A stretch of 64,000 bases of DNA from Deltaproteobacteria bacterium (GCA_012729055.1 JAAYDW010000011.1:4402-68401); one strand, 5' to 3'. Positions 3-18,042 are shown, counted from the first letter of the stretch. Made by a program: numbers and translations. Notes: generated by a model not told the origin, from the sequence alone.

Positions 3-818
3 CGCTACGACCTCAAAACCATTATTTCCACAGGCTGGCACCATGCCCTGATTCCCGACGAATATCTCATCGCCGAATATTTTCAGACTGAGGCGGATGA
101 AATCGAAAAACTGGAAGCACAGATCAACGAGGCCCAGAGTGAGCTGGCCGAGGCGGTGGAAACGGCGCAGGAAGTGGCCGCTTATGAACCGGAAGAAGAT
201 GAAACGGTCACTGCTTCGGTCATCAAGAAAGCCCTCAAGGATTTGATCGACGACCTTAAAGGCAGTGATGGACAAAGCGCCCGCAAGGAGCTGGCTAATC
301 TGCAAGCTCAGGAAAAAGCCATTACGGATATTGAAAAACGCATTAAAGAGACCAGGGCAAAGCTGAAGCTCAAAACCGATGAACTGGAATTGAAAATTCA
401 GCTCAAACGTCTGGGGGGCGATGAATTCAAAGCAGAAAGCCGCGAACTTCTCAGGCAGGCAGACGCACAACTGGCCGCACTCGATAACAATAACAAAGAC
501 GACAAAAAGAAAATCACGGCGCTCAATAAAGACAAAGCCGCACTCGATGCGCGTCTTGCCAAAACAGACGCCATCCTCACCGCCATCGGCGGCCAACTGA
601 CAGAAGATGATGCCCGCCGCCTCATCCTGAAAAAGCTCTACGACCTGGCTGCCAATGAATTGAGCCGCTACCTCAATGCGGAAAAACGCTCCCTCATCGC
701 GGGCGTGGATAACCTCTGGGACAAATACGCGGTTTCGAGCCGGGAGTTGGAAAATAAAAGGAGCGAGACATTAAAAGAGTTGAACGGTTTCTTGAAGGGG
801 CTGGGGTATCTGGAATGA
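3..818 (+). CDS. hsdM: Type I R-M methyltransferase subunit, C-terminal part (begins before the window)
   Basis: Frame is open from base 3 (RYDLKTIISTGWHHALIPDEYLIAEYF...). Coiled-coil tail ends NLWDKYAVS...FLKGLGYLE, typical of long HsdM tails. Stop overlaps the hsdS ATG (ATGA). Confidence 0.8.
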   Translation, partial: RYDLKTIISTGWHHALIPDEYLIAEYFQTEADEIEKLEAQINEAQSELAEAVETAQEVAAYEPEEDETVTASVIKKALKDLIDDLKGSDGQSARKELANLQAQEKAITDIEKRIKETRAKLKLKTDELELKIQLKRLGGDEFKAESRELLRQADAQLAALDNNNKDDKKKITALNKDKAALDARLAKTDAILTAIGGQLTEDDARRLILKKLYDLAANELSRYLNAEKRSLIAGVDNLWDKYAVSSRELENKRSETLKELNGFLKGLGYLE

Positions 819-2062
819 GTGCTGTGGAGGGTTGGAGTTCATTTACGATTGAACAGTGCTGCGACATTCTCGATAGCAAACGGGTACCAGTTAACTCCGA
901 AGATAGGGATAGGCACGTTGGTGAGATTCCTTATTATGGGGCTAATGGTTTACAGGGTTATATTGATGACTACATTTTTGACGAGCCGCTAATCCTTATT
1001 GCCGAAGATGGCGGTTGTTTCGATGAATTTGCCACTCGTCCGATTGCATATCGCGTAAATGGAAAAAGCTGGGTTAACAATCATGCTCATGTACTCCGAG
1101 CAAAAGAGGGGTTTTATCAAGACGCCATTTTTTATTCTCTTGAACATAAAGATATTCACTCTTTTATCGTAGGTGGAACAAGATCAAAATTGAATCAGAG
1201 CGCGTTGCGCTCAATAGTTGTAGAACTTCCAAAGCAAAAAGCCGAACAAGCAAAAATCGCCGAGATACTTTCGACGGTGGACCGGGCGATTGAGCAGACT
1301 GAGGCGTTGATTGCCAAACAGCAGCGCATCAAGACCGGCCTGATGCAAGACCTCCTCACCCGCGGCATCGACGAACACGGCAACCTCCGCACCGAACAAA
1401 CCCACAAATTCAAAGACTCCCCCTTGGGCCGGATTCCGGTGGAGTGGGAAGTGAAGAAAATTGGCGATGTATTTGATATTCAACTCGGAAAGATGTTGAG
1501 TCAGAAAGCGACTGAGGGACATGCACCTTTCTACTATCTCGGTAATAAAAACGTTCAGTGGGATCAAGTTGATGCATCTGATTTGCAGATGATGGATTTC
1601 GATGAACGTGAACGCCAAAAGTTTGATTTAAAACAAAATGATATTCTCGTCTGCGAGGGTGGGGAGGTAGGACGAACAACTATATGGCGTAATGAAGTTG
1701 CAAACTGTTATTTTCAAAAAGCGATCCACAGATTAAGACCAATTGATAATCAGTATTTTCCAAGTCTATTTCCACGATTCATGAAATGGGCAACCAGAAA
1801 GGGTCTTTTGTCAGACTATACAAGCCAGACCAGCATTGCGCACCTTACACAAGAAAAACTGGCAACAGTGCCAATAATAATCCAAGGTTTATCAGAACAA
1901 CACAGATTAAACGCCGCAGCAGATAAAATAGACGATTATCTTTCTAGTCAAACTGTTTTGTTGACAAAGCTGCACTTAATTAAAACCGCCCTCATGCAAG
2001 ACCTACTCACGGGCAAGAAGCGTGTGCTTGTCTCGACAAGCAATATAGGTACTAATATATGA
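815..2062 (+). CDS. hsdS: Type I R-M specificity subunit
   Basis: Two AT-rich target-recognition domains separated by conserved helices (EQAKIAEILS...KTGLMQDLLTRG; KTALMQDLLTGK) and GRIPVEWEV. Confidence 0.95.
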   Translation: MSAVEGWSSFTIEQCCDILDSKRVPVNSEDRDRHVGEIPYYGANGLQGYIDDYIFDEPLILIAEDGGCFDEFATRPIAYRVNGKSWVNNHAHVLRAKEGFYQDAIFYSLEHKDIHSFIVGGTRSKLNQSALRSIVVELPKQKAEQAKIAEILSTVDRAIEQTEALIAKQQRIKTGLMQDLLTRGIDEHGNLRTEQTHKFKDSPLGRIPVEWEVKKIGDVFDIQLGKMLSQKATEGHAPFYYLGNKNVQWDQVDASDLQMMDFDERERQKFDLKQNDILVCEGGEVGRTTIWRNEVANCYFQKAIHRLRPIDNQYFPSLFPRFMKWATRKGLLSDYTSQTSIAHLTQEKLATVPIIIQGLSEQHRLNAAADKIDDYLSSQTVLLTKLHLIKTALMQDLLTGKKRVLVSTSNIGTNI

Positions 2063-2110
2063 ATCTGTTCCATAGTACAATTCAACCTTATGCATATTTG
2101 GAGATCATTA

Positions 2111-5100
2111 ATGTCCCTTTCAGGCACTGCTTTACCCAAGCCGAAGAACTGGCAAGATTTTGAATGTCAAACACGTGATCTATTTGCTTGTGTACTGAAC
2201 GATTCAAATGCCCAGCGAAACGGAAGGCAGGGGCAACCGCAAAACGGTGTCGATGTCTACGGATATAGAGATAAGGACATAAAATGTCTTGTAGGAGTGC
2301 AGTGTAAAGAGAAGTATAAAGATGACGTTACTGAGGAAGAGCTTCGCGGCGAGGTTAATAAAGCAAAAAGTTTCACTCCTAAAATATCTGAATTCATTCT
2401 CGTTACAACCGCCCCAAGAGATCAGAAGATTCAAAAATCTGCCCGGCTTTTGACTGAGGAATTGGCCCAAACCAGTCATCCTATCCTCGTGTATGTTTGG
2501 GGATGGGAAGATATTGAAGAACATGCCTCAAAATATGATCAAGCATGGAAAGCTTTTGATCAAACTTGGAATCCTTTTACTCAAAGAGGATTTGAAGAAC
2601 TAAACCTAAAAATAGATAAGCTCACAGAGTCATTAAATAAATCTGAAAATGGGATGCGTGCACCCTCATCCAACCCAACTGACCTACGTATAGATGAGAG
2701 TGCCGAAAACACACCGAGACATGGGCAAATAACCGCTTTTCAGCGCGTCATAGACGACGGCCACGTCCGTGATGCCCTTAAACAGCTCACTATGCTTAGA
2801 AGTGATGAGTGGTCAGTTGCAAGTCGTTCTGAGCGTTACAGAATTCTTGTTGCGATCGCTTCTGCAAAATTGAAAATAGGGGAGTACGATCAAGCAGGGA
2901 CCTTGCTTCTGGATGCATATAGCGAATATCCCGAACACAAGAATGCGCGAAAGAACCGAGCGACAGGTCTGCTTCTTTTGCAAGATTATGCGGGCGCAGC
3001 AAAAGTGGCGCGGGAAATTTTGGCAGATGACAGAAATAACGCAGACGCTGCCGGTACGCTTATACAGGCTCTAATAAAAGAGCTCACTTGTAATGATCCC
3101 CTCAAAGAAATTCCAGAGGAACTACGGGAAGCTGAAGCGGTGTTTGTTGCGCACGTGCATTTTTTGCGATGTAGAGATAATCCTGCCTGGATAGAAGTCG
3201 CAAGGACGGCCGAAAAAAAATATCCCGAAAGCCACTTACTGAAGCTATTTGCTGCTGAGGCAGTGCTCGATTCGCTTGCACGCAACGATCGCGATGCATT
3301 AGCAGGCGGCATTCTGAAGAACATAGCCACTCAAGATATTGGTGATGCGGTTGCAACACTATACGCTGAGGCGCGCCAAGCCATCGACAAGGGGTACGCC
3401 CTACTTCCCTCCATAGCTCACAATGCAGCAATGGCGCTTCGGTTCTCCGGCGATCCAGTGAAGGCAAAAGAGATTCTCGATACAGCGATAAAACAATATC
3501 CAAGCGACGAAAACCTTAGGCTTCAACGCGCGATCATTGCTTTTTCAGAAAATGATCCGGCTGGTGCGCTTGCCGTTCTGCCAGACAAACCAGAAGATCC
3601 CGAGGCAATCGGTATCCGAGCTGAAGCACTAGCTGCCACAGGCAAGCCGGATGATGCGCTTTCCTTGATCAATAATACTGCCCAGAGCATACTTCCAGAG
3701 CATGTCAAAACGGCGCTGTTGGCCGTTCGCATTCGTATTTACATAGCTCATGGCGAAAAACAGCTTGCAATCGATACTCTCGCGCAATGTGTCGCAAAGG
3801 AGCCCGAAAACTTCCATCTCAGGGCTTTGCAGATACATCTTCATCGTGCTGCAGGAGACCATGACGGCGCAAAGAGGGCCTTTGAAGAAGCCATTGCGGT
3901 CGTTAACGACCATACTAGCCTCCAATCACGATTGATGTTAAGTTTTGAAGCGCAGAAATTGGGCCGCGATGATGCGATAGTCGGTCTGCTTAAAAACCGT
4001 GTTGCAACCGATCGTGAAAACGAAGGGCTACAAGTCCTGATCGCCTCTTCAATCAATTCAGGCGCATGGGTTACCGCACGTGAAACAGTGGGTTCCATTT
4101 CGACCAATCTTCATAAAACGGAATGGTTTTTAAGAGCAGATGCGATTCTTGCGATCAATACAGGCGATCCGGCGGCAGCTGAGAAGATCGCCCGATATCT
4201 CGCAGGCTGGCCTAATGATGTCCAAATGATATTGGCACAAATTGGTATTTGGCAAAGAGACGGACGAGATATCGATATACAGCGATTGCTACAGAATTTA
4301 GATCTATCTGCTCTGGATGGTCCACCCGGGCAATGTGTTCGTATTGGCGCAGCGATTACCCATTATGAAGACGCATCGAGAGGGCTTAGATACGGCTACT
4401 CGGTCCTTATGGACCATTGGGATGATCCTAAAGCTCATCTTGCATATCAGGGGCTTATATTCCTGAATGACAAAATTGGGGAAGCAATGCCTTCAACAGC
4501 TGTGGTTACCGAGAATACGGTTGTATGCCTTCTTGCTGAAGGGCAAGAACGGCGATACCGTATCGAAAAAGAACATTATGCCTTTTTTAAAGACGAGCAA
4601 TTAAACCCCAAAGATGATCTTGCCATGCTCCTAATTGGTAAAAAACAAGGCGATAATATCGTCATTCGAGAAGGCATTGGCTCAAAAACAGTTCATATTC
4701 TCTGGATTAAACCCATTTACCTCGATGCCTTGCACTGTTCCTTAGACCGATTCAATGAGCGATTCCCCCGCGCAAATGGCCTGCTGAGATTCAAATTCGA
4801 TCCGACAGCAACCGATCCGTTGGAAGATATGCGGGCAATTACAAAGGATCGTGCCGACGCGCATCAACGTATTCTTAGTGATTATCAATCAAAAGGCCTA
4901 CCACTTTCTTTCACGGCCACATTGATAGGGATAGATCCGTTAGATGCATGGCTTGGCCTACCATCAGTCGATATAAAGTTCCACGTTTGTCGCGGTGCCT
5001 TCCCTGAACGTAAAGAGGCACTTTTAACAATAGAGAAGCACGGACGAAAAGGATGTGTACTGGATGCAATTACGCTTTCTGTGGTTCGTCGTCTAGGCGT

Positions 5101-6010
5101 TGAAAGGGCTGTTGCCGAGGTATGCGGGACTATCCATACACCACAAACGGTTATAAATCTTCTGGCGAACCGAGCACTTGAGGCTCAACAGGACATCGGG
5201 AAAAAGAAAGGATTTATGGCTTGGCAGAATGACCGGTTGGTTTTTCAAGAGTATTCGGAAGAAATGATGAAACAAGTGGCGGATGAACGCGTTAAAGAGC
5301 TTGCATGGGCAAGGAGACGGACCGCTATAGCACCTGCCATACCAAAGAAAGATTTTTCAGAAGAGACGCGAAAGATAATTAACATGATTCGCAGTAACGT
5401 TTGTGATCCCGCTATTGCGGCTGATGGTAACGGTCTTTTGCTTTTATCTGAAGATATGGGCTATCGACTTTGGTCGGTATCAACTTTCTCAATACCAGCC
5501 ACATGGTTGCAACCTGTCTTTATAACAGCACGCAATGAGGGCCACCTGACTAGAGCCGAATACTGTGAAGCAATCAATACACTCGCATTAAGCGGCCATA
5601 CCTATATATCTCTGGATAACGATTGTTTGATTCATCAAGCGCGTAAGAATGATTTCACATTAACCACCGAATTGTCCCGCCTTATCGATATATTAGGGGG
5701 TCCATCGGCAGACATTTATGCAAATACCGGTGTGATGGGCAGCTTTATTGACACACTTTTGAATGAATGTGCCGATGACTTCAACGTAAAAAGAATAGTG
5801 AGTGAAATTTTCACGTCCGCAATAAGGGGGCGTGATGAAGATCAACGTAAACTTATAGGATTAATACTGAGGCAGACACATAGAAAAAAGGAATTATTAT
5901 TGGAACATGCATTGGGTTGGCTTATTGGGCACTCACTTGGGATGTCATATTTCAATGACCTACTATTGTTGCAAAAAAATAAACAATTAGGCCGAGATTC
6001 TTACATATAG
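2111..6010 (+). CDS. Large defence-type protein: N-terminal restriction-endonuclease-like domain, TPR repeats, GreA/B C-terminal-like domain, PIN domain
   Basis: NWQDFE...GRQGQPQNGVD...GVQCK (Mrr/PD-(D/E)xK-like); TPR-like helices; 'RRYRI...DDLAMLLIGKKQGDNI' (GreA/B-C-like); 'CVLDAITL...TPQTVI...LLLLSEDMGYR' (PIN-like). GGAG before ATG 2111. AT-richer than the flanks. Confidence 0.75.
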   Translation: MSLSGTALPKPKNWQDFECQTRDLFACVLNDSNAQRNGRQGQPQNGVDVYGYRDKDIKCLVGVQCKEKYKDDVTEEELRGEVNKAKSFTPKISEFILVTTAPRDQKIQKSARLLTEELAQTSHPILVYVWGWEDIEEHASKYDQAWKAFDQTWNPFTQRGFEELNLKIDKLTESLNKSENGMRAPSSNPTDLRIDESAENTPRHGQITAFQRVIDDGHVRDALKQLTMLRSDEWSVASRSERYRILVAIASAKLKIGEYDQAGTLLLDAYSEYPEHKNARKNRATGLLLLQDYAGAAKVAREILADDRNNADAAGTLIQALIKELTCNDPLKEIPEELREAEAVFVAHVHFLRCRDNPAWIEVARTAEKKYPESHLLKLFAAEAVLDSLARNDRDALAGGILKNIATQDIGDAVATLYAEARQAIDKGYALLPSIAHNAAMALRFSGDPVKAKEILDTAIKQYPSDENLRLQRAIIAFSENDPAGALAVLPDKPEDPEAIGIRAEALAATGKPDDALSLINNTAQSILPEHVKTALLAVRIRIYIAHGEKQLAIDTLAQCVAKEPENFHLRALQIHLHRAAGDHDGAKRAFEEAIAVVNDHTSLQSRLMLSFEAQKLGRDDAIVGLLKNRVATDRENEGLQVLIASSINSGAWVTARETVGSISTNLHKTEWFLRADAILAINTGDPAAAEKIARYLAGWPNDVQMILAQIGIWQRDGRDIDIQRLLQNLDLSALDGPPGQCVRIGAAITHYEDASRGLRYGYSVLMDHWDDPKAHLAYQGLIFLNDKIGEAMPSTAVVTENTVVCLLAEGQERRYRIEKEHYAFFKDEQLNPKDDLAMLLIGKKQGDNIVIREGIGSKTVHILWIKPIYLDALHCSLDRFNERFPRANGLLRFKFDPTATDPLEDMRAITKDRADAHQRILSDYQSKGLPLSFTATLIGIDPLDAWLGLPSVDIKFHVCRGAFPERKEALLTIEKHGRKGCVLDAITLSVVRRLGVERAVAEVCGTIHTPQTVINLLANRALEAQQDIGKKKGFMAWQNDRLVFQEYSEEMMKQVADERVKELAWARRRTAIAPAIPKKDFSEETRKIINMIRSNVCDPAIAADGNGLLLLSEDMGYRLWSVSTFSIPATWLQPVFITARNEGHLTRAEYCEAINTLALSGHTYISLDNDCLIHQARKNDFTLTTELSRLIDILGGPSADIYANTGVMGSFIDTLLNECADDFNVKRIVSEIFTSAIRGRDEDQRKLIGLILRQTHRKKELLLEHALGWLIGHSLGMSYFNDLLLLQKNKQLGRDSYI

Positions 6011-6066
6011 ATATTTCTAGTGGATATTGAAACGTTCTGCTTTGATAAAGTATTCTGGTCAATACG

Positions 6067-6208
6067 GTGAAAAAGACAGATAAAAAATAAAACAGCCAAG
6101 CAACTCAAACTCGACGAACGCAACCATGTCGAGAAACCACGCCACGATGAGCTTGACGATTTGGGCTGGGAATGCATTTATAATCAAAAGGAGTCATCCG
6201 CCTTATGA
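6067..6208 (+). pseudogene. Relic copy of the hsdR 5' end
   Basis: 6086-6208 reads NKTAKQLKLDERNHVEKPRHDELDDLGWE...ESSAL*, versus HsdR DKTAQQLLLDERNHVEKPFLDQLHGLGWE. A 7-bp insertion near 6082-6088 puts it out of frame with GTG 6067. Confidence 0.85.
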
Positions 6209-6330
6209 ATCCAAGGGAATCCCAAACCATTGAGTGGAAAGAATCCTGGCGCGATGAATATATTCGCTGGGTCTGCGGTTTTGCCAATGCGCAGGGCGGC
6301 AAGTTGATTATCGGCAAAAACGATAAGGGC
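6189..6330 (+). repeat. 142-bp direct repeat, copy 1 (RBS plus 5' end of the AlbA_2 gene)
   Basis: Matches 7384-7525 with 8 mismatches by manual comparison. Confidence 0.95.
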
Positions 6331-6375
6331 CAAATATCGGGTGCATACCCGAAGCAAAGTGAGGTCAATCAATGA
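6205..6375 (+). pseudogene. 56-aa truncated copy of the AlbA_2 gene N-terminus, coupled to fic
   Basis: MNPRESQTIEWKESWRDEYIRWVCGFANAQGGKLIIGKNDKG then a divergent tail. TGA 6373-6375 overlaps the fic ATG at 6372. Confidence 0.8.
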
Positions 6376-7403
6376 CTAAAAAATACACGCCGCCTTATCA
6401 CATCACGCCTGCGATTCTGCACTTAGTGGTGCAGATCGGCGAGGCTCTGGGAAAGCTCCATGTGCCAGACGACAGCACGAATGTTCCTCTCCTGCGGCGA
6501 GGCAACCGCATTAAGACCATTCAGGCTTCCCTGGCGATTGAAGGCAACACGCTTACCCTGGAGCAAGTTACGGCTTTGCTTGACGGCAAACGGGTTCTGG
6601 GAATGCCCCGTGAGGTTCAGGAAGTGCGCAACGCCTTTGCAGCGTACGAGAAACTACCGGACTGGTCGCCGTACTCCCGCTCCGATCTTCTTGCCGCACA
6701 TGCCTTGCTGATGGCCGGGCTCGTTGATGAAAGCGGGCATTTCCGTTCAGGCGGGGTCGGTATCTGCCAGGGTAAAAAGGTTGTGCATGTCGCACCACCT
6801 GCCGACCGGGTGGCCGCGCTGGTTGACGATCTGCTTTTCTGGCTAAAAAACACCGACGAGCATCCCCTTGTTGCCAGTTGCATCTTTCATTATGAATTCG
6901 AGTTCATCCATCCCTTTCAGGACGGCAACGGCAGGCTGGGCCGCCTCTGGCAGACACTTGTTCTTAGTCAATGGCGACCGGTTTTTGCCATGCTCCCGGT
7001 GGAAAGCATCATTCGCGACCGGCAACAAGAATACTATAAAGCCCTTAGCACAGCAGACCGGGCGGTAGATGCAACTGCTTTTATTGAATTTATGATGAGC
7101 GCCATTTTGCAGGCCATTGAAGAAGCAACCTTCACAAGCGACCAAGGAATAGACCATCAAAGCGACCAAGTAATCCGCTTGCTCCAAGCGCTCAGGAAAG
7201 CAAGACGGAGCGCTTCCGATGTTATGACCGAACTGGGGCTGGCCCACAGGCCGACGTTCCGGAAAAACTATCTGCATCCTGCCCTTGAGGCAGGGTTGAT
7301 TGAGATGATCCATCCCGAGACACCCCGCGCCCGAAACCAGAAGTATCGCCTGACGGCTCGCGGTGAAAAACTGCTGAAAACTGAGGAGTCATCCGCCTTA
7401 TGA
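6372..7403 (+). CDS. Fic family protein with C-terminal HTH
   Basis: Canonical HPFQDGNGRLGR motif, SLAIEGN motif, C-terminal wHTH ending NQKYRLT. Confidence 0.93.
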   Translation: MTKKYTPPYHITPAILHLVVQIGEALGKLHVPDDSTNVPLLRRGNRIKTIQASLAIEGNTLTLEQVTALLDGKRVLGMPREVQEVRNAFAAYEKLPDWSPYSRSDLLAAHALLMAGLVDESGHFRSGGVGICQGKKVVHVAPPADRVAALVDDLLFWLKNTDEHPLVASCIFHYEFEFIHPFQDGNGRLGRLWQTLVLSQWRPVFAMLPVESIIRDRQQEYYKALSTADRAVDATAFIEFMMSAILQAIEEATFTSDQGIDHQSDQVIRLLQALRKARRSASDVMTELGLAHRPTFRKNYLHPALEAGLIEMIHPETPRARNQKYRLTARGEKLLKTEESSAL

Positions 7404-7525
7404 ATCCCAAGGAATCCCAAAACATTGAGTGGAAAGAAGCCTGGCGCGATGAATATATCCGCTGGGTCTGCGGTTTTGCCAATGCCCAGGGCGGCAAGTT
7501 GATTATCGGTAAAAACGATAAAGGC
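7384..7525 (+). repeat. 142-bp direct repeat, copy 2
   Basis: Partner of 6189-6330. The two copies bracket fic. Confidence 0.95.
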
Positions 7526-8743
7526 GTGATCCTGGGCGTAGCCAATGCCAAGAAGCTTCTGGAAGACATCCCCAACAAGATCAAGGATATTCTGGGAATT
7601 ATCGTTGATGTCAATCTGCGGGTTGAAAAGGGCAAAGACCTGATTGAAATTGTTGTGGAACCCTACCCTTATCCTGTAAGCTACAAGGGGGAGTATTATT
7701 ATCGCAGCGGCAGCACCAAACAGGAATTAAAAGGGGCAGCCCTCGATAAGTTTTTGCTGGAAAAGCAGGGCAAGCGCTGGGATGCGGTGCCGGTGCCCCG
7801 GGTGGCCATGGCCGATTTGAAGAAAGACTCTTTTGATTTGTTTCGCGCGAAAGCGGCCAAAAGCGGGCGCGTGAGCGATGAGGTTTTGTCGGAAGGCAAT
7901 GCTTCGCTGATTGAGAATTTGAATCTGAAGGAAGGCCATTATCTCAAACGCGCCGCCATTTTACTTTTCCACCAGAATCCGGAAAAGTGGGTGGTCGGCT
8001 CGTATATCAAAATCGGTTATTTTCGCACGGATGCCGATCTGCTTTATCAGGATGAAATTCATGGCAGTCTGTTTGTCCAGGCTGAAAAAACTTTGGACCT
8101 ATTGCTCACCAAATATCTGAAAGCGTCTATCAGTTATGAAGGGATCAGCCGTGTGGAGCGGTTTCCTTTTCCGAAGGCCGCTTTGCGGGAAGCCTTGTTA
8201 AATGCGATTGTGCACAAGGACTATGGCGGCGGCGCGCCCATCCAGATCAGCGTGTATGAAGATAAAATCTATTTTTGGAATGACGGCCAGTTGCCCGAAA
8301 ACTGGACGGTGGCGCAGTTGTTGGCCAAGCATGCCTCCAAGCCTTTTAATCCTCTCATTGCCAATGCCTTCTTCCGGGCGGGAATGATTGAATCCTGGGG
8401 GCGGGGCATCGAAAAAATTCGACAGGAATGCAAAGCAGCCGGCATGCCGTTGCCGGAATATCGAACGGATGCGTCGGGGTTGATGGTAAAATTCAAGGCA
8501 GGTATCCTGAAGAAAGAAAAAACGCCGGTGAAAACGCCGGTGAAAACGCCGGTGAAAACGCCGCAGAAGATCGTTGCCTTGCTGGAGAACGACGGCAGTC
8601 TTTCAATTGTGGAACTGGCAAAACAAATCGGAAGATCTGCCAGCGCTGTTGAACGGGCCATACGAAAATTGCGGGAAGCAGGAACGATTGAACATATCGG
8701 CCCGGCCAAAGGTGGTCATTGGGTGGTCAAGGAGAAACAATGA
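7400..8743 (+). CDS. AlbA_2 (Schlafen-like) + HATPase_c_4 + HTH protein (often annotated RecG-like or transcriptional regulator)
   Basis: ESQNIEWK...FANAQGGKLIIG, ALREALLNAIVHKDY, NPLIANAF...IESWGRGI, C-terminal HTH ending IGPAKGGHWVV. Confidence 0.9.
   Translation: MNPKESQNIEWKEAWRDEYIRWVCGFANAQGGKLIIGKNDKGVILGVANAKKLLEDIPNKIKDILGIIVDVNLRVEKGKDLIEIVVEPYPYPVSYKGEYYYRSGSTKQELKGAALDKFLLEKQGKRWDAVPVPRVAMADLKKDSFDLFRAKAAKSGRVSDEVLSEGNASLIENLNLKEGHYLKRAAILLFHQNPEKWVVGSYIKIGYFRTDADLLYQDEIHGSLFVQAEKTLDLLLTKYLKASISYEGISRVERFPFPKAALREALLNAIVHKDYGGGAPIQISVYEDKIYFWNDGQLPENWTVAQLLAKHASKPFNPLIANAFFRAGMIESWGRGIEKIRQECKAAGMPLPEYRTDASGLMVKFKAGILKKEKTPVKTPVKTPVKTPQKIVALLENDGSLSIVELAKQIGRSASAVERAIRKLREAGTIEHIGPAKGGHWVVKEKQ
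8519..8563 (+). repeat. In-frame 12-bp tandem repeat (AAAACGCCGGTG)x3.75 encoding KTPV repeats
   Basis: Read directly from the sequence. Confidence 0.95.
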
Positions 8744-11700
8744 CGTCAGATAAAACAGCCCAACAACTCCTGCTCGACGAGCGCAACCATGTCGAGAAAC
8801 CCTTCCTCGACCAACTTCACGGTCTAGGATGGGAGATTATCGATCTCGACGGCAAGCAGCACCCAAGCGACAGCTACCGTCAGAGCTTTACCGAGGTGGT
8901 GATGCTGCCGGTGCTGAGGGCGCAGCTTAAGGTCATTAATGACTGGCTGGAAGACGATCAGGTCGAAGAAGTGGTCAAGTCGCTTACGGCAAGCTTTCCC
9001 GGAACCGGTCTGATTTCGAACAACCGCCACGTCTTTACCCTTTTATTGGAAAACACCAGTGTAAGTGTTAACCGCCGCACGGGCGAGAAAAGCCCGACGG
9101 TGCGTTTTGTGGATTTTACGCATCGCGACAATAACCGCTTTATTGCGGTCTGCCAGCTCAAGGTGCGCATCCTGGGCACGGAGCATCATATCGTGCCGGA
9201 CATTGTCCTTTTCTTAAACGGCCTGCCGGTGGTGGTGGTGGAATGCAAATCCCCCAAGGTTAAAGACGCTATCCCGGAAGCCATTGATCAGATCTTGCGC
9301 TACAGCGAACAGCGTGGGGCCAGGGGCGAGGGCAGCGTGCCTCTTTTCTTCTATAATCAGTTTGTCATTGCCACCTGCCGTCAGCAGGCCAAGTTCGGCA
9401 CGATTACCACGCACAGTGAAAAATACTTCTACCGCTGGGCCGATCCTTACCCCCGCACGGTCGATGATCTGGAACACGGTGAAAGCGGCCCCAACGATCA
9501 GCAGCGACTGGTGGCCGGAATGCTCGACCGTGATAATCTGCTGGATCTCATTCGCACCTTTACGCTCTTTTCGACCAACGACAAGGGTGAGACGATCAAG
9601 ATTGTGGGGCGTTACCAGCAGTTTCGCGCCGTCAAGCTGGCAGTCAAGCGACTGCTGATGGGCCAAAGCCCCCGCGAACGGAGCGGTATTATCTGGCATA
9701 CGCAGGGCTCGGGCAAATCGCTGACCATGATGTTTATGGTTCGGGAGATGTATCGACATGCCCGGCTCTCGCATTGGAAGGTGGTCTTTGTCACCGACCG
9801 TACACAACTGGAAGGTCAGTTGACGGAAACCAGCCAGAGTATCGGCTTTACGGTCAAAGTGGCTGACAGCATTAAGACACTCAAAGAACTGTTGCGCTCC
9901 GATTCCTCCGATCTGGTCATGGCCATGATCCACAAATTTCGCGAAGCGGATTTGACGGAAACCTTCCCGGAATTGAACGCCAGCCCCTGCATTTTGGTGA
10001 TGACCGACGAAGCGCACCGGTCACAGTATGCCATGCTGGGTGCGAACCTTGATCGCGGCATCCCCAACGCCGCCCGCATCGGCTACACAGGAACGCCGAT
10101 CGACAAAACGGAGCGCGTCTTCGGCGACTACATCGACAAATACACGATGCGCCAGTCCATTGATGATGGTGTGACGCTGGAGATCGTCTATGAAGGACGC
10201 ACGCATAACGCTGAAGTGGCAGACCAAAAGGCGATGGATACGGCTTTTGCGGATGTCTTCAGCGATTATAACCTTCAGCAGCGTATGGATATTCTGGGTT
10301 ACGGTTCCCGTGAGGCCTACCTGGAATCCAAGACTACCATTGAGGCCAAGGCCAAAGACATGATCGAGCATTATCTGACGCATGTATTCCCCAATGGCTA
10401 TAAGGCGCAGGTGGTGGCCACGTCCCGCGAAGCAGCGGTGCGTTACAAGGGTTTTATTGATGATGCGCTGACGGCGGCCATTGCTGAATTGGAAAAGGCC
10501 AAATGCGGTCATTCCGGGCATGAACCGGAATCCAGGAATAATTCTAAAGAACCTCTGGATTCCCGCCTGCGCGGGAATGACAAGTCGTGGAACGTGCCGG
10601 CAATAGACTTCGAACAATTAAAAAAGCTGACGACGGACGTAATCATCTCCGGCAATCACAATGACTTGCCTCACCTTAAGGCCTATGCGGATGATTCCAA
10701 ACATGAAACCAGCATCAAGAGTTTCAAGATGGCTTTTGGGAACAAGGAAGAAGAAATCACCGGTGACATGGGCATTCTGATTGTCAACAATATGTTGCTG
10801 ACCGGCTTTGATGCGCCGGTTGAGCAGGTCATGTATCTGGATAAGGTTATTGTAGCCCACAATTTGCTTCAGGCCATTGCCCGCGTCAACCGCGTGGGCG
10901 GAGAAGGCAAGGATAAGGGCTTTGTGGTGGATTATGTGGGCATCGGCCACCACCTGAAAAAGGCTATTGATACTTATGATGAACGTGAACAGAAGGAAGT
11001 GATCGACACCCTGAGCTTCCCCGAGGAAGAGTTGCGGGAGCTGCAAGCGTCTCATGCGGCCATTCTGGACCTGCTTAAGAAACACGGACTCACAGACCTG
11101 ACGGATCATGATGCATTCTTTGATATCTTCTATGACGAAGATCTGCGTTTTGATTTCATGCTGGCCTTTAAACAGTTGACCCGATGCCTGAACCTCGTAT
11201 TCCCGGCAAAAGAAGCGCTTGCCTACATGGCCGACTACCAGGCCCTGGCCGAAATCAACGTGCTGGCAGGAAAGCATTTCCGGGATGAACGCCTGAGCAT
11301 GAAAGGCATTCCCGCCAAGTTACGCGGGATTACCGACGCCTATCTGGAATCCAAGGGTATCGAGGTAAAAATCGAACCGATCTCTATCCTTGATGCGGAT
11401 TTTGAAAAGGAAGTTGACAAGCGAAGCCGGACCAAGACCAAGGCGGCGGAAGTGGAGCATGCCATTCGCCATCACCTGGATATTGAACTGGCTGATGATC
11501 CTGATCTTCAGGCGTCCTTCGCCGCCGCATTGGCTGCGATATTTGAAAAATTTCGCAACAACTGGAAAAAGATTTATGAGGAACTGGAGAAGCTGCGCGA
11601 ACGCATCATTAATGCCGGTAAAGAGCCGACCTATGGACTACACAGGAAGAAGCAGATGCCGTTCTTCCGCATGTTTGCCAGAGAAATATTCGGTGAAGGT

Positions 11701-12012
11701 GCGGCAGCTCAGCCTCAGGCCGTGCCAATTGCCGAGCCTGCCCCTGACTATGGCATGAATCACGAAGACAGGATCAGCCATTTGGTTGACCTGACGCAGA
11801 AAGTGTTTCTGATTGTCGAACGGGAATTGAAACTTACCGGGTTCTGGGAAAGCATTCCTGCCCGCAATAAATTAAAAGCTGATATTCAAGCCGCCTTGCT
11901 GGCTCCCGAATTCTCAGAGCTTCCTGGCATCGTAAAAAACAGAGCGCGCATTATTTCCCGGATCATGGAAATCGCTGAAAGCAAAAACGACATTATCCTT
12001 TACGCAGAGTGA
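8740..12012 (+). CDS. hsdR: Type I R-M restriction subunit
   Basis: PDIVLFLNGLPVVVVECK nuclease motif, IWHTQGSGKS Walker A, DEAHRSQ, MLLTGFDAP, LLQAIARVNR. ATG 8740 overlaps the upstream stop. Confidence 0.97.
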   Translation: MTSDKTAQQLLLDERNHVEKPFLDQLHGLGWEIIDLDGKQHPSDSYRQSFTEVVMLPVLRAQLKVINDWLEDDQVEEVVKSLTASFPGTGLISNNRHVFTLLLENTSVSVNRRTGEKSPTVRFVDFTHRDNNRFIAVCQLKVRILGTEHHIVPDIVLFLNGLPVVVVECKSPKVKDAIPEAIDQILRYSEQRGARGEGSVPLFFYNQFVIATCRQQAKFGTITTHSEKYFYRWADPYPRTVDDLEHGESGPNDQQRLVAGMLDRDNLLDLIRTFTLFSTNDKGETIKIVGRYQQFRAVKLAVKRLLMGQSPRERSGIIWHTQGSGKSLTMMFMVREMYRHARLSHWKVVFVTDRTQLEGQLTETSQSIGFTVKVADSIKTLKELLRSDSSDLVMAMIHKFREADLTETFPELNASPCILVMTDEAHRSQYAMLGANLDRGIPNAARIGYTGTPIDKTERVFGDYIDKYTMRQSIDDGVTLEIVYEGRTHNAEVADQKAMDTAFADVFSDYNLQQRMDILGYGSREAYLESKTTIEAKAKDMIEHYLTHVFPNGYKAQVVATSREAAVRYKGFIDDALTAAIAELEKAKCGHSGHEPESRNNSKEPLDSRLRGNDKSWNVPAIDFEQLKKLTTDVIISGNHNDLPHLKAYADDSKHETSIKSFKMAFGNKEEEITGDMGILIVNNMLLTGFDAPVEQVMYLDKVIVAHNLLQAIARVNRVGGEGKDKGFVVDYVGIGHHLKKAIDTYDEREQKEVIDTLSFPEEELRELQASHAAILDLLKKHGLTDLTDHDAFFDIFYDEDLRFDFMLAFKQLTRCLNLVFPAKEALAYMADYQALAEINVLAGKHFRDERLSMKGIPAKLRGITDAYLESKGIEVKIEPISILDADFEKEVDKRSRTKTKAAEVEHAIRHHLDIELADDPDLQASFAAALAAIFEKFRNNWKKIYEELEKLRERIINAGKEPTYGLHRKKQMPFFRMFAREIFGEGAAAQPQAVPIAEPAPDYGMNHEDRISHLVDLTQKVFLIVERELKLTGFWESIPARNKLKADIQAALLAPEFSELPGIVKNRARIISRIMEIAESKNDIILYAE
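10508..10581. repeat. Palindromic REP/RPE-like mini-element inserted in frame in hsdR
   Basis: GTCATTCC-GGGCATGAACC-GGAATCCAG ... CTGGATTCCCGCCTGCGCGGGAATGAC. The arms are inverted copies and each is a hairpin. Encodes GHSGHEPES...LDSRLRGND. Confidence 0.85.
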
Positions 12013-12016
12013 CAGG

Positions 12017-12700
12017 ATGGAGCTCTCCTACATCATTCAGAGATCAGCCAAACGACACAAATTGACGATATCCGTCGAACGGGATCGCCGCGTTGTGGTC
12101 CACGCACCGGAGAGAATGTCCGACGAAGATATCCGGCGTGTGGTTGAGTCAAAACGCGGGTGGATTTACGAAAAGACGGGCCATGCCCAGAAATATCAGG
12201 ATCTGCCTCATCCGCCGGGAAAGGAACTGGTCAGCGGCGAGTCGGTTCTCTATCTTGGCAGGCAATATCGCGTTGACATCGCAAAAAACGGTTCAACAGA
12301 AATTAAATTTAAACAGCGTTTCCTGATTCCGGCCATCAATACAGAAAAAAGAATGGAAGCTTTGCGTCAGTGGCACATCAGCCGCGCCGAAGAAAAAATT
12401 ATTCCGCGAACCAAACTCCATGCTCGCGCCCTCGGTGTGGATGTCGCCGCAATTCGTATTGTTGACAACCGTTATCGCTGGGGTTCTTGTACCATGAAGG
12501 GCCATGTGCATTTCAACTGGCGGCTGATCAAGGCCCCTATGTTTGTCATTGACTACGTTATCGTCCATGAACTCACTCATCTCATTGAGGCCAATCACAC
12601 ACCCAGGTTTTGGAACATAGTGCGGTCACAAACCTCGACAATGGAAAAAGCAAAAGCATGGTTGAAGGAATACGGGCAGTTGCTGGAACAGGCGCTTTAG
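12017..12700 (+). CDS. M48/SprT-like zinc metallopeptidase (YgjP/DUF45), typical downstream of hsdR
   Basis: RWGSC, FNWRL, IDYVIVHELTHL...NHTPRFW. Confidence 0.92.
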   Translation: MELSYIIQRSAKRHKLTISVERDRRVVVHAPERMSDEDIRRVVESKRGWIYEKTGHAQKYQDLPHPPGKELVSGESVLYLGRQYRVDIAKNGSTEIKFKQRFLIPAINTEKRMEALRQWHISRAEEKIIPRTKLHARALGVDVAAIRIVDNRYRWGSCTMKGHVHFNWRLIKAPMFVIDYVIVHELTHLIEANHTPRFWNIVRSQTSTMEKAKAWLKEYGQLLEQAL

Positions 12701-13043
12701 AAAGGGTAAGAAATAACAAAGCCTTTGGCCATTTCTAACCGCACGGAAAAACGCGATGAATTTATTGATCTTAAAAAAATTGCTTTTCAATTTGCAAGTT
12801 TAATGCAGATGACCTTTCCTCGCTTGAACAGGATTGCGTTACCGCCTGATCGCCCGATCTTTCCTCTTGACAATTGCCGCCCAAAACCGCAAACACCACT
12901 AGCTCAGGGGTCTTCCCGCTGGTCCGGCAGAAAGATTTCTTCCTCCGGTCGAAAGGACATGAAAAGGAAGTGCAGCAAAGTCTTCCCGGCCGGCCCAATC
13001 GACGGAAAGCGCATGTTGAGATATTACGGAAGGTGAACGGATT

Positions 13044-15264: not shown

Positions 15265-16020
15265 ATGCCTGAGATCATCGCGATTCATTCCTTTCGGGGC
15301 GGAACGGGAAAATCCAACACAGCGGCCAACCTGGCCTGCCTGCTGGCCCGGCAGGGCCGGCGCGTCGGCGTCGTGGATACGGACATCCAGTCTCCCGGCA
15401 TTCACGTGCTGTTCAACCTCGATCCGAAAGACGCGGCCCATACCTTAAACGATTTCCTCTGGGGCAAATGCGACATCGGACGCGCGGTTTACGACGTGTC
15501 CCGGATTCTCGGACCGGAAGAGCGGGGAAAGCTCTTTCTCATCCCCTCGAGCATCCGCACGGGCGACATTGCCCGGGTCCTGCATTACGGCTACGACATC
15601 AATCTGCTCAAGGAAGGGTATCAGCAGGCCATTGAGCAGTTCGCGCTCGATTATCTTTTCATCGACACCCATCCGGGCTTAAACGAGGAGACGCTGATGT
15701 CGATCGCCATCGCCGACACCCTCCTCATTCTCCTGCGTCCCGACCAGCAGGATTACCAGGGAACGGCCGTAACAGTCGAGGTTTCCCGCGCGCTCGAGGT
15801 TCCCCGGATGTTTCTGATCGTCAACAAAGCGCCCGCCTCGCTTTGCGGCGACGCGCTGGCCGCTAAAGTCGCAGCAACCTACAATTGCGACGTGGCGGGG
15901 GTCCTGCCGCACGCCGACGAGATGATGGAGTTGGGAAGCTCCGGCATTTTTTGTCTCACGCACCCGGATTCGTCGCTTGGCCGGGCCATAGACGGCATTC
16001 TCCGGAGAATCGAGACATGA
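15265..16020 (+). CDS. MinD/ParA family ATPase
   Basis: HSFRGGTGKSN deviant Walker A, VDTD, IDTHPG, IVNK. Confidence 0.9.
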   Translation: MPEIIAIHSFRGGTGKSNTAANLACLLARQGRRVGVVDTDIQSPGIHVLFNLDPKDAAHTLNDFLWGKCDIGRAVYDVSRILGPEERGKLFLIPSSIRTGDIARVLHYGYDINLLKEGYQQAIEQFALDYLFIDTHPGLNEETLMSIAIADTLLILLRPDQQDYQGTAVTVEVSRALEVPRMFLIVNKAPASLCGDALAAKVAATYNCDVAGVLPHADEMMELGSSGIFCLTHPDSSLGRAIDGILRRIET

Positions 16021-17055: not shown

Positions 17056-18042
17056 ATGGACGTTATGGCAGCGGCGGTTTTCAACGGCAAACTCACCTAC
17101 GTCGAGGATTATCCTGTGCCGCAAATCAGGCCCGGCTGGGCGAAAATTCGCGTCAGGCTCGCCGGCATCTGCAAAACGGACATGGAAATTCTGAAAGGGT
17201 ACAAGGGATTTGAAGGCGTGCTGGGGCATGAGTTTGTCGGCCACGTGGATCAGTGCGAAGAGGCTTCCTGGATCGGAAGGAGAGTGGTGGGCGAAATCAA
17301 CGCCGCCTGCGGGCAGTGCGACTGGTGCCGCTGCGATCTGGGGCGTCACTGCCCGAACCGCTCGACCCTCGGCATCTCCCGCCTCGACGGCTGCATGGCC
17401 GACTACTGCGTCCTGCCCGTCGCGAACCTCCTTGCGGTCCCGGATCATCTCTCGGACGAACGCGCGGTTCTTGTCGAGCCCTTGTCTGCGGCCTGCGAGA
17501 TTCTGGAGCAGCTGCGGCCCGCGGGCAACGAGCGGGCGGTGGTCCTCGGCGACGGGCGTTTAGGCATTTTGTGCGCCTGGGTGCTTGCCACGGTCCTTTC
17601 GGATGTTACGGTCGTGGGGCATCATCCGGAAAAGCTGGAGATCCTCCGGTGGCGAAATATCCGGACCGCTCTTAAAGAAAAGAATGTTATGCCCGGCGCG
17701 GACATCGTCGTGGAGGCCACCGGGTCGGGCGCGGGAATTGTCGCAGCCATGGCGCTGTGCCGGCCGCGTGGAACGATTGTGATGAAATCCACCGTCGCCG
17801 TTTCCGGCGACGTCAATCTGGCGCCGATCGTTGTGAACGAACAGACAGTTCTGGGATCACGCTGCGGACGCTTTGCCGACGGGCTCAGCATCATGCGCGA
17901 GTTTCCGGACATGCCGCTCGACCGGCTTTTCACCGCCCGCTATCCGCTGGCGCGCGTTCGGGAGGCCTTTGTCCGGGCGACGCAAAGCGACGCCCTCAAA
18001 GTGCTGCTGGATATTTCACCCTCAGACGAAGAGAAAGAATAA
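17056..18042 (+). CDS. Zn-dependent alcohol dehydrogenase (MDR family)
   Basis: GICKTD, GHEFVG, CxxCxxC-x7-C structural Zn site, GDGRLG, EATG. Confidence 0.92.
   Translation: MDVMAAAVFNGKLTYVEDYPVPQIRPGWAKIRVRLAGICKTDMEILKGYKGFEGVLGHEFVGHVDQCEEASWIGRRVVGEINAACGQCDWCRCDLGRHCPNRSTLGISRLDGCMADYCVLPVANLLAVPDHLSDERAVLVEPLSAACEILEQLRPAGNERAVVLGDGRLGILCAWVLATVLSDVTVVGHHPEKLEILRWRNIRTALKEKNVMPGADIVVEATGSGAGIVAAMALCRPRGTIVMKSTVAVSGDVNLAPIVVNEQTVLGSRCGRFADGLSIMREFPDMPLDRLFTARYPLARVREAFVRATQSDALKVLLDISPSDEEKE

Follow-up and report, generated by a model that had tools for sequence, protein, structure and literature searches.

The 64,000-nucleotide stretch of DNA analysed here (the window) comes from the genome of a Deltaproteobacteria bacterium (GCA_012729055.1, JAAYDW010000011.1:4402-68401), an assembly of 113 contigs referred to below as G000. 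Using open reading frame (ORF) calls and Pfam matches, positions 3-12700 of its plus strand were identified as one Type I restriction-modification (R-M) operon with extra genes, in the order hsdM, hsdS, TPR/PIN, a relic of the hsdR start, a relic of the AlbA start, fic (SoFic-like), AlbA, hsdR and YgjP. Two nested direct repeats, each built from the start of a gene that stands complete further downstream, were present at this locus, the inner one flanking fic and the outer one flanking fic and AlbA together, and dead hsdR starts of the same kind recurred upstream of extra (cargo) genes in related loci. Hereafter, W is the hsd locus of the window, G008 is a same-genus genome consisting of a single contig, L followed by a number denotes another locus and X followed by a number denotes a run of another sample.

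The nested order of two gene-start relics proposed in an initial annotation of this DNA was confirmed by repeat search, local alignment and self-BLAST, and the repeats are real. The inner direct repeat was 142 nt long with 134/142 identical positions (94%), a spacing of 1195 and a self-BLAST E value of 6e-59. It began 16 nt 5' of the AlbA ATG, and the counts of eight mismatches, five of them synonymous (the other three being non-synonymous), were reproduced. The outer direct repeat (6087-6171 versus 8750-8834) comprised 85 nt at 79% identity (self-BLAST E 2e-14), and in tblastn residues 3-34 of the hsdR query matched the relic at 69%. This repeat had been described as more diverged and frameshifted. 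The greater divergence (79% vs 94%) was borne out, but the frameshift was not: all 85 matched bases were in frame with no indels, and damage was confined to the 5' edge of the relic (6077-6086), where the start codon was lost and small indels had accumulated. The longest identical runs were 26 nt in the inner repeat and 20 nt in the outer one. Across the whole G000 assembly, the relic stretch matched only itself and the two full copies.

The 1053-nt segment enclosed by the inner repeat began 41 nt ahead of the fic ATG and ended 20 nt short of that gene's stop, with the last 6-7 fic codons and the stop being provided by the second repeat copy. The tail of the W Fic protein read ...LLKTEESSAL followed by the stop, versus ...LLKAKD(A/S)R and stop in relatives, in which the stop sits on the ATG of the next gene. 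The right junction of the insert was located at AGGA(G/T)TC, within the AlbA ribosome-binding region (Shine-Dalgarno-like AGGAG), and it is through this position that the Fic C-terminus was rewritten: it is a chimera formed at the junction, its native last codons having been lost and 6-7 codons taken from the AlbA leader. Both ends of the fic insert are illegitimate joins and 142 nt of the target were duplicated. The catalytic motif HPFQDGNGRLGR was intact in the Fic translation, and ATGA stop-start overlaps were present at the relic-ORF/fic, fic/AlbA and AlbA/hsdR junctions. Coordinates of all features are collected in Table 1.

Table 1. Genes, relics and repeats of the hsd operon W, in window coordinates
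Feature	Position	Strand	Evidence and remarks
hsdM, 3' part	3..818	+	PADLOC MTase_I, 1e-22; whole gene 891 aa, begins upstream of window
hsdS, specificity subunit	815..2062	+	Pfam Methylase_S, 5e-39, two stretches
TPR-repeat protein, 1306 aa, with C-terminal PIN domain of TPR-GreAB-C-PIN type	2090..6010	+	Pfam PF20698, 6e-22, plus TPR families
Old intergenic spacer before former hsdR start	6011..6076	+	60/66 identical to G008
hsdR 5' relic, ~hsdR nt 1-102	6077..6175	+	Alignment, self-BLAST; matched core 6087-6171
Inner repeat copy 1: AlbA ribosome-binding region and codons 1-42 (relic)	6189..6330	+	Alignment to 7384-7525; single in G008
Relic ORF, 56 aa	6205..6375	+	42 AlbA codons and 14 read-through codons; AlbA_2 match; stop overlaps fic start (ATGA)
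Inserted fic-bearing segment, 1053 nt	6331..7383	+	Between the two repeat copies; absent from G008
fic, SoFic-like	6372..7403	+	Pfam Fic and Fic-like_C; PADLOC SoFic, 7e-44
Inner repeat copy 2: functional AlbA start	7384..7525	+	Alignment to 6189-6330
'AlbA' gene, AlbA_2-HATPase_c_4-wHTH	7400..8743	+	Pfam; stop overlaps hsdR start
hsdR, intact, 1090 aa	8740..12012	+	Pfam HSDR_N, SWI2_SNF2, T1R_D3-like
YgjP-like metallopeptidase gene, operon end in this hsd family	12017..12700	+	Pfam PF01863, 1e-56

An in-place tandem duplication followed by decay, or the misassembly of strain variants, could leave a similar picture, and in its favour the G000 assembly is fragmented into 113 contigs and strain variants of the locus exist in metagenomes. 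We consider either origin scarcely credible. Contigs from two other studies bridged the inner repeat, one from X2 spanning 6093-8548 with 3 differences and one from X4 spanning 6216-8548 with 15 differences, which excludes an assembly artefact and contradicts the concern, raised in the initial annotation, that the repeats might be one. A foreign fic with its own leader between the copies is not expected of a tandem duplication, and the outer structure was also present in the single-contig G008. No 1195-bp or ~2.66-kb deletion joint was found in the data of X2, X4, X5 and X6, which are assembled contigs from which rare variants drop out, making this negative uninformative on rare excision. Two joints in X5 (6299 to 7544 and 6302 to 7706) had shorter sides of 28-29 letters and unknown content in between, and were taken as paralogues or other organisms.

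The same runs contained a strain variant (X4 and X6) in which, left of ~6216, the end of AbiEi and about six AbiEii codons were joined to nt ~7-12 of the AlbA relic, with about 2 nt shared at the junction. The X4 contig of this variant also carried an hsdR-start fragment resembling the first relic of L015, 947 nt further left. The variant is a recent replacement of the upstream part, with its breakpoint again just inside a gene start. Separately, one X2 contig ended at 6100 and another started at 6093 (8-nt overlap), their loose ends being near-inverted repeats (GGTAGTGTAATATC... and ...GACAGTACC); in a sister strain, an insertion sequence (IS) or a miniature inverted-repeat transposable element (MITE) appears to have entered the hsdR relic and duplicated 8 bp of target. 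At 8519-8566, inside AlbA between HATPase_c_4 and wHTH, a 12-nt tandem repeat (AAAACGCCGGTG) was present as three exact units and a diverged fourth, and Logan contigs broke near it in several runs.

Among 47 genomes of the genus, the locus was found at DNA level in only G000 and G008. The G008 sequence aligned to the window in two pieces, 1238-6326 at 90% and 7384-12707 at 83%, which overlapped on one AlbA start, and its gene order was TPR/PIN, hsdR relic, AlbA, hsdR and YgjP, with no fic and a single AlbA start. The AlbA-only intermediate that had been predicted is present, then, with the same hsdR relic. The hsdR relics of the two genomes were 71% identical with indels (81/114) and shared the junction to the AlbA leader; the orthologous relics in G008 and L015 ended at the junction seen in W (...ATCATT followed by TATAAT.AAAAGGAG). 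The two AlbA starts of G000 differed from each other at 8 positions, and from the G008 copy at 14 and 12. With the hsdR relics shared and decayed to 71% and the AlbA repeat at 94%, the outer event is placed before the species split and the inner event after it, in agreement with the relative ages first suggested. Judged from these alignments, the fic event is younger than the G000/G008 split and looks like an in-place duplication. G008 is most simply the pre-fic state; along its AlbA start there was no single switch from relic-like to full-like sites, and hence no sign that G008 arose by excision. Operons in which hsdS and hsdR follow one another with no cargo were L156, L157 and L169, so that the empty state expected for related hsd loci was seen at family level. 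A single-copy site devoid of the insert was accordingly available for the inner repeat in G008, and for the outer repeat at family level only.

The drop in identity between the left (90%) and right (83%) halves of the G000/G008 alignment also speaks for a different origin, in which both repeats are allele pairs instead of duplications: a donor fic-AlbA-hsdR segment replaced the resident AlbA-hsdR, the left join lying at AlbA nt 126, the right crossover in AlbA or hsdR, and the 94% representing donor-recipient divergence. Comparable displacement is seen in L159 (hsdR, Fic and AbiEi relics) and in the X4/X6 variant, and fic lies upstream of AlbA-hsdR in another locus, L168. We regard this replacement as improbable nonetheless: each AlbA start of G000 resembles the other more than it resembles that of G008, the fic/AlbA junction, an illegitimate one, falls exactly on the repeat's left edge, no identity step was found along AlbA-hsdR, and the junctions of L168 differ, with a small ORF between fic and AlbA.

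Concerning the remaining genes of the operon, the full hsdM ORF corresponds to L160:2544-5219, and hsdM amino acid identity to relatives was 84%. The TPR/PIN gene is older cargo after hsdS; its protein had no PADLOC match, was 88% identical at the amino acid level in G008 at the same position, and was reduced in L168 to its last ~120 residues. A weak promoter-like TTGAAA-18-TATTCT at 6027-6056 was not above shuffles, and in the promoter and terminator scan counts fell within the shuffle range. The YgjP-like gene followed hsdR in related loci wherever the sequence extended that far. The cargo of W lies between hsd genes on the same strand, with a match to a defence family (SoFic), and by these sequence features would be classed as embedded defence genes.

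W was compared within a set of 25 distinct loci of its Type I hsd family, W included. Five of the 29 loci from an AlbA-based search and four of the 80 kept loci from a Fic-based search belonged to the family (the other 24 and 76 were outside it and are uncounted); the six closest hsdR relatives were fetched from the phylum (401 genomes), 321 weaker matches being left out, and the class (339 genomes) contributed nine new loci. L170 is identical to L015 and L013 is the same place as L016, and each pair was counted once. One clean cargo gene stood between hsdS and hsdR in L025 (AlbA), L044 and L163 (Fic) and L154, and many family loci had multiple cargo genes in this position. Cargo families in the relatives comprised AbiE, DRT type 1, HamA with a helicase, ABC-3C with TIR, a NACHT protein and SIR2 with HerA. 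Just downstream of the L044 hsd operon, a second Fic gene (Fic_N, Fic and SoFic-like_C) was enclosed by 239-nt direct repeats (15315-15553 and 17096-17334, 94.6%). Broken hsdR genes were also encountered, present as two ORFs in L044 and divided at about aa 504 (L158) and aa 238 (L159), indicating that some of these operons are decaying.

Firm hsdR 5' relics, on the same strand and upstream of cargo, were present in 7/25 loci (W, L016, L015 with two, L017, L047, L159 and L167), and weaker ones in two more: L164, with a 39-nt match (E 4e-4), and L046, with two fragments at ~aa 45-85. Analogous relics, which the initial annotation had proposed to look for elsewhere, do recur. The relics ended at approximately hsdR nt 72 (L017), 96 (L159), 102 (W, L016 and the second relic of L015), 108 (L047) and 153 (the first relic of L015, and L167), and these different ends, together with different linkers, point to at least five independent events. 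Cargo order was reversed between L015, in which AbiE, relic, AlbA and hsdR follow one another, and L167, with AlbA, relic, AbiE and hsdR, and this variable order fits entry at the hsdR start. The first ~10 residues of hsdR were MTS(D/E)KTAQQL in 3/5 AlbA-linked loci, with a variant in a fourth, and MNPTNTPQYL in 2/3 loci linked to a Y1 gene (see below); the hsdR N-terminus follows the gene in front of it, which suggests that cargo brings its own hsdR start. In L017, a relic of hsdR nt 1-72 was joined to the last ~55 nt of hsdS, followed by AlbA, with a 5-7-nt microhomology, C(C/T)TGCTC. Microhomology at illegitimate junctions was seen in L017, at the W fic/AlbA junction and at the X4/X6 junction. 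In L015, the AbiE promoter and first nine codons were duplicated (7909-8005 and 8137-8233) and fused in frame to the hsdR relic.

Two loci carried 5' relics of genes that had no full copy downstream. L159 contained, one after another, relics of hsdR (aa 3-35), Fic (aa 1-94) and AbiEi (aa 1-48), with no full fic or abiE downstream, and in L155 the first 37 codons of an AlbA_2-type gene preceded AbiE, again with no full copy downstream. These relics indicate displacement, which recombination between repeats cannot undo, and they fit a process in which arriving DNA was joined illegitimately on its left and by homology in hsdR on its right, everything in between being replaced.

Contigs of L017 and L037, labelled as archaeal bins (ANME-2 cluster archaeon and Methanobacterium), carried AlbA, hsdM, hsdS or hsdR, as far as each reached, with proteins up to 80-86% identical to those of G000; the hsdS of L017 was only 39% identical. 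Either gene transfer between syntrophic partners or misbinning of the contigs would account for this.

Taken together, we consider it rather probable that serial illegitimate or homology-assisted recombination, with no integrase involved, embedded defence-type cargo just upstream of hsdR, and the pattern is best read as 'insertion with long target duplication' combined with one-sided homologous capture. In a first event, before the G000/G008 split, an AlbA-hsdR module would have arrived in the resident operon with its own hsdR start. Its left end would have been joined illegitimately into the resident hsdR ~102 nt past the start and its right end resolved by homology within hsdR, leaving the resident hsdR start as a dead relic. 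Homologous resolution in this anchor would be compatible with the AlbA/hsdR ATGA junction, which was kept in five loci (W, L015, L016, L025 and L037), and with the hsdR N-terminus tracking the cargo; no crossover point was visible. In a second event, after the split, the 1053-nt SoFic-like fic fragment would have entered the AlbA start with duplication of 142 nt of target, either through two microhomology-mediated template switches or through capture of a foreign fragment at a staggered break. Selection would then keep those outcomes in which all downstream genes retain an intact start and an ATGA-coupled junction. Because the overlapping (ATGA) genes of the operon leave no intergenic position that could be hit harmlessly, all genes would go on working only after events that bring in or duplicate a gene start; and relics would persist only if short, an insert between long direct repeats being lost again by recombination. 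Such a selective filter would account for the shortness of the hsdR relics.

The initial annotation had proposed that AlbA entered the start of hsdR and fic then entered the start of AlbA, gene starts serving as anchors. The nested order stands, but a dedicated gene-start mechanism is not supported, junction positions and linkers differing between events. Nor was the hsdR 5' segment more conserved than the remainder of the gene, with a mean pairwise identity of 80% at nt 31-60 versus 66-87% along the first 1 kb, which gives no evidence of a specialised anchor sequence. No conserved attachment sequence was found at cassette boundaries: the left boundaries of fic and AlbA varied between loci, and only AbiE kept one edge. 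A dedicated recombinase was likewise not found by Pfam in the ORFs tested nearby.

That annotation had further envisaged reversible, integrase-free loading, each cassette leaving by recombination between the repeats with one intact gene restored. In the form considered here, a circle of cargo would enter a gene start by a single homologous crossover (Campbell type), no recombinase being needed. The architecture is exactly repeat, cargo, repeat, with an intact downstream gene. The junction between relic and AlbA is also the same after TPR/PIN (G000, G008) and after AbiEii (L015), and that between relic and AbiE promoter is the same after AlbA (L167) and after the AbiEi start (L015), a pattern that joint transfer of relic and cargo, with crossover in the hsdR start, would predict. 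In addition, the 26-nt identical run of the inner repeat is near the minimum homology for RecA-dependent recombination. Against these points, the first formation of each junction would still be illegitimate, with at least five different hsdR junctions, and excision from W would release no intact native fic, the Fic tail being chimeric. The outer repeat is at 79% with its longest identical run at 20 nt, the relics of L159 and L155 have no full downstream copy with which a gene could be restored, and at no single point of the G008 AlbA start do relic-like sites give way to full-like ones. Reversible excision restoring intact genes is thus not upheld, and we judge entry and exit of cargo by this route unlikely.

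Searches for mobility genes agreed with the earlier observation that no integrase or transposase lies nearby: Pfam identified none in the operon genes, none in 13 ORFs tested at 12.7-30.7 kb (6 of them with no Pfam hit at all) and none in the 3 ORFs tested within 2.5 kb upstream of hsdM. Movement of the cargo by a transposase-type element, either an IS200-like Y1 (RAYT-like) gene with repetitive extragenic palindrome (REP)-like hairpins or an IS, draws on observations in relatives. An IS200-like Y1 transposase (RAYT-like) ORF lay directly upstream of hsdR, its stop on the hsdR start, in L045 (1233-1805), L158 (15284-16198), L159 (7318-7974) and L166 (11571-12302); the latter three matched Pfam Y1_Tnp, and the L045 ORF was similar by eye with no Pfam hit. 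A REP-like hairpin, GGGCAGGCACGGGGGCCTGCCCC, was present at the end of the AbiEi relic in L159 and a near-identical one at the Fic 3' end in L045, and the IS- or MITE-like insertion in the hsdR relic of the X2 strain points the same way. However, no GGGCAGGCACGGGGGCCTGCCCC-type hairpin was found in the window at up to 3 mismatches, no Y1 protein homologue was found in G000 with the Y1 query of the relatives, and the G000 junctions have no terminal repeats. IS200/IS605-type elements are not known to make long target duplications, which also counts against this origin, and we think it very unlikely.

Several observations weigh against serial illegitimate or homology-assisted embedding. Scars other than 5' gene ends were found, namely the hsdS 3' piece of L017, a TPR/PIN 3' fragment in L168 and a duplicated hsdM 3' end in L164, and Fic or AlbA carried internal deletions in L164, L168 and L037; together, these 3' scars and internal deletions imply that plain deletion also shapes hsd-family loci. 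In L164, the duplicated hsdM end (2055-2199 and 3606-3749; 145 nt, 85.5%) surrounds an AAA_14/DUF4143 ATPase gene and is a long target duplication of the same kind, located at a gene 3' end. Across 6 contexts the left boundary of the AbiE module is almost unchanged, which looks more cassette-like than random joining. This edge, GGAAAT.TCTTGAC, lies ~8 nt upstream of the -35 box of the promoter TTGACT-17-TATAGT (L015, L046, L155, L159 and L167), and its constancy may reflect a need for the module to keep its own promoter, or the spread of ready-made relic-cargo units by homologous recombination. That breakpoints cluster strongly within the first ~20-300 nt of resident genes has the assumed selective filter as its sole explanation, and that filter explains less well the early breakpoints (nt ~17-282) in displaced genes that have no downstream copy. 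No donor for the fic fragment was found, the 41-nt fic leader having no match in the other loci collected, and no empty site strictly orthologous to the G000 hsdS-TPR/PIN-hsdR arrangement was found among the 47 genus genomes, of which 2 carry the locus. No clear recombination breakpoint emerged when the identity of AlbA-hsdR-YgjP to five relatives was followed in sliding windows, and gene conversion between the repeats could mimic a young age of the inner event.

A more tentative extension, which we hold possible though doubtful, is that, in this widespread hsd family, cargo is carried between two portable homology arms, a short hsdR-start relic on its left and an intact hsdR on its right. A unit of relic, cargo and hsdR, once formed by an illegitimate event, would then be able to move by ordinary homologous recombination into any related Type I R-M operon. 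If so, it would explain the recurring relic-cargo junctions in different contexts, the position of all hsdR relic ends at nt ~70-155 and the embedding of defence genes. Exchange of defence-gene cassettes would then require no recombinase, and relic layers would be readable as an order of acquisition.

With respect to known systems, insertion with long target duplication was reportedly described by Nobusato et al. in 2000. The parts of a later study drawn on here (Furuta, Abe & Kobayashi 2010, PMC2853133) describe insertions that lack mobility genes, have an empty counterpart in a relative and duplicate >30 bp of target, the repeats often spanning a translation start or stop so that the target gene is preserved. 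Type I R-M loci are among the examples, as is one insertion into an operon-like cluster. By that description, the W repeats exceed 30 bp (142 nt at 94%, 85 nt at 79%), and the inserts, of 1.05 kb and about 2.6 kb, are below 20 kb and contain no mobility genes. Unlike the inserts described there, which are R-M systems, those of W contain no R and M genes: the R-M operon is the target, and the cargo consists of other defence-type genes, a Fic gene and an AlbA_2-HATPase_c_4-wHTH gene. W also differs from those cases in having two nested events, in the serial piling up of relics across its relatives, and in that the 'duplication' of the first event may be a resident allele next to a donor allele.

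In experiments, homology-facilitated illegitimate recombination usually deletes recipient DNA rather than duplicating it. It resembles the events proposed for W in having one homologous anchor, the other end joined at a few bases of microhomology and no site-specific recombinase. Its occurrence in transformation or conjugation was reportedly treated by de Vries & Wackernagel 2002 and Prudhomme et al. 2002, and is also the subject of Amarir-Bouhram et al. 2011 (PMC3240628). A further parallel is the sequential displacement of effector-immunity modules of the Vibrio type VI secretion system (T6SS) and of the C-termini of Rhs and contact-dependent inhibition (CDI) proteins, for which the passages used of Kirchberger et al. 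2017 (PMC5361080) describe a conserved gene as homologous anchor. According to the same passages, the other end is joined illegitimately in these arrays too, and new arrivals push older modules along, with orphans recording the order. The anchor of the T6SS/Rhs arrays is the upstream gene, whereas W is a mirror image, hsdR being the proposed anchor downstream and the orphans being 5' gene ends piled upstream; moreover, the displaced pieces are short dead relics in the hsd family and functional immunity genes in the T6SS arrays (PMC5361080).

Defence genes embedded in Type I R-M operons are the subject of a preprint (Payne et al. 2024, 10.1101/2024.01.29.577857) and of work on TgvAB in Vibrio cholerae (PMC11411939), and in the portions of these sources available the cargo is, as in W, in the same orientation, nested between hsd genes and from defence-associated families. 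Those portions catalogue or test embedded genes and do not describe gene-end relics or a route of entry; in the preprint, the significance of embedding is said to remain to be explored and systems with pseudogenes were excluded. No description of stacked hsdR 5' relics was found in searches of an open-access library for hsdR relics and illegitimate recombination or for embedded Type I R-M defence genes, which is not proof of absence.

The value of W is that of a readable footprint of the embedding of defence cargo in R-M operons, and it is a variant of known illegitimate-recombination phenomena. Its relics would be the physical trace of cargo entry that is repeated and integrase-free, takes place at the hsdR start and supplies a replacement gene start. 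Nesting inside operons such as those of R-M and BREX is common among anti-phage genes. Should the pattern hold generally, the relative order in which defence genes were acquired could be read from relic layers, and defence genes embedded recently, some of them perhaps new, could be located by a simple sequence signature. The relics would also point to a testable way in which defence cargo is shuffled between operons, even those of bacterial and archaeal bins in methanogenic consortia.

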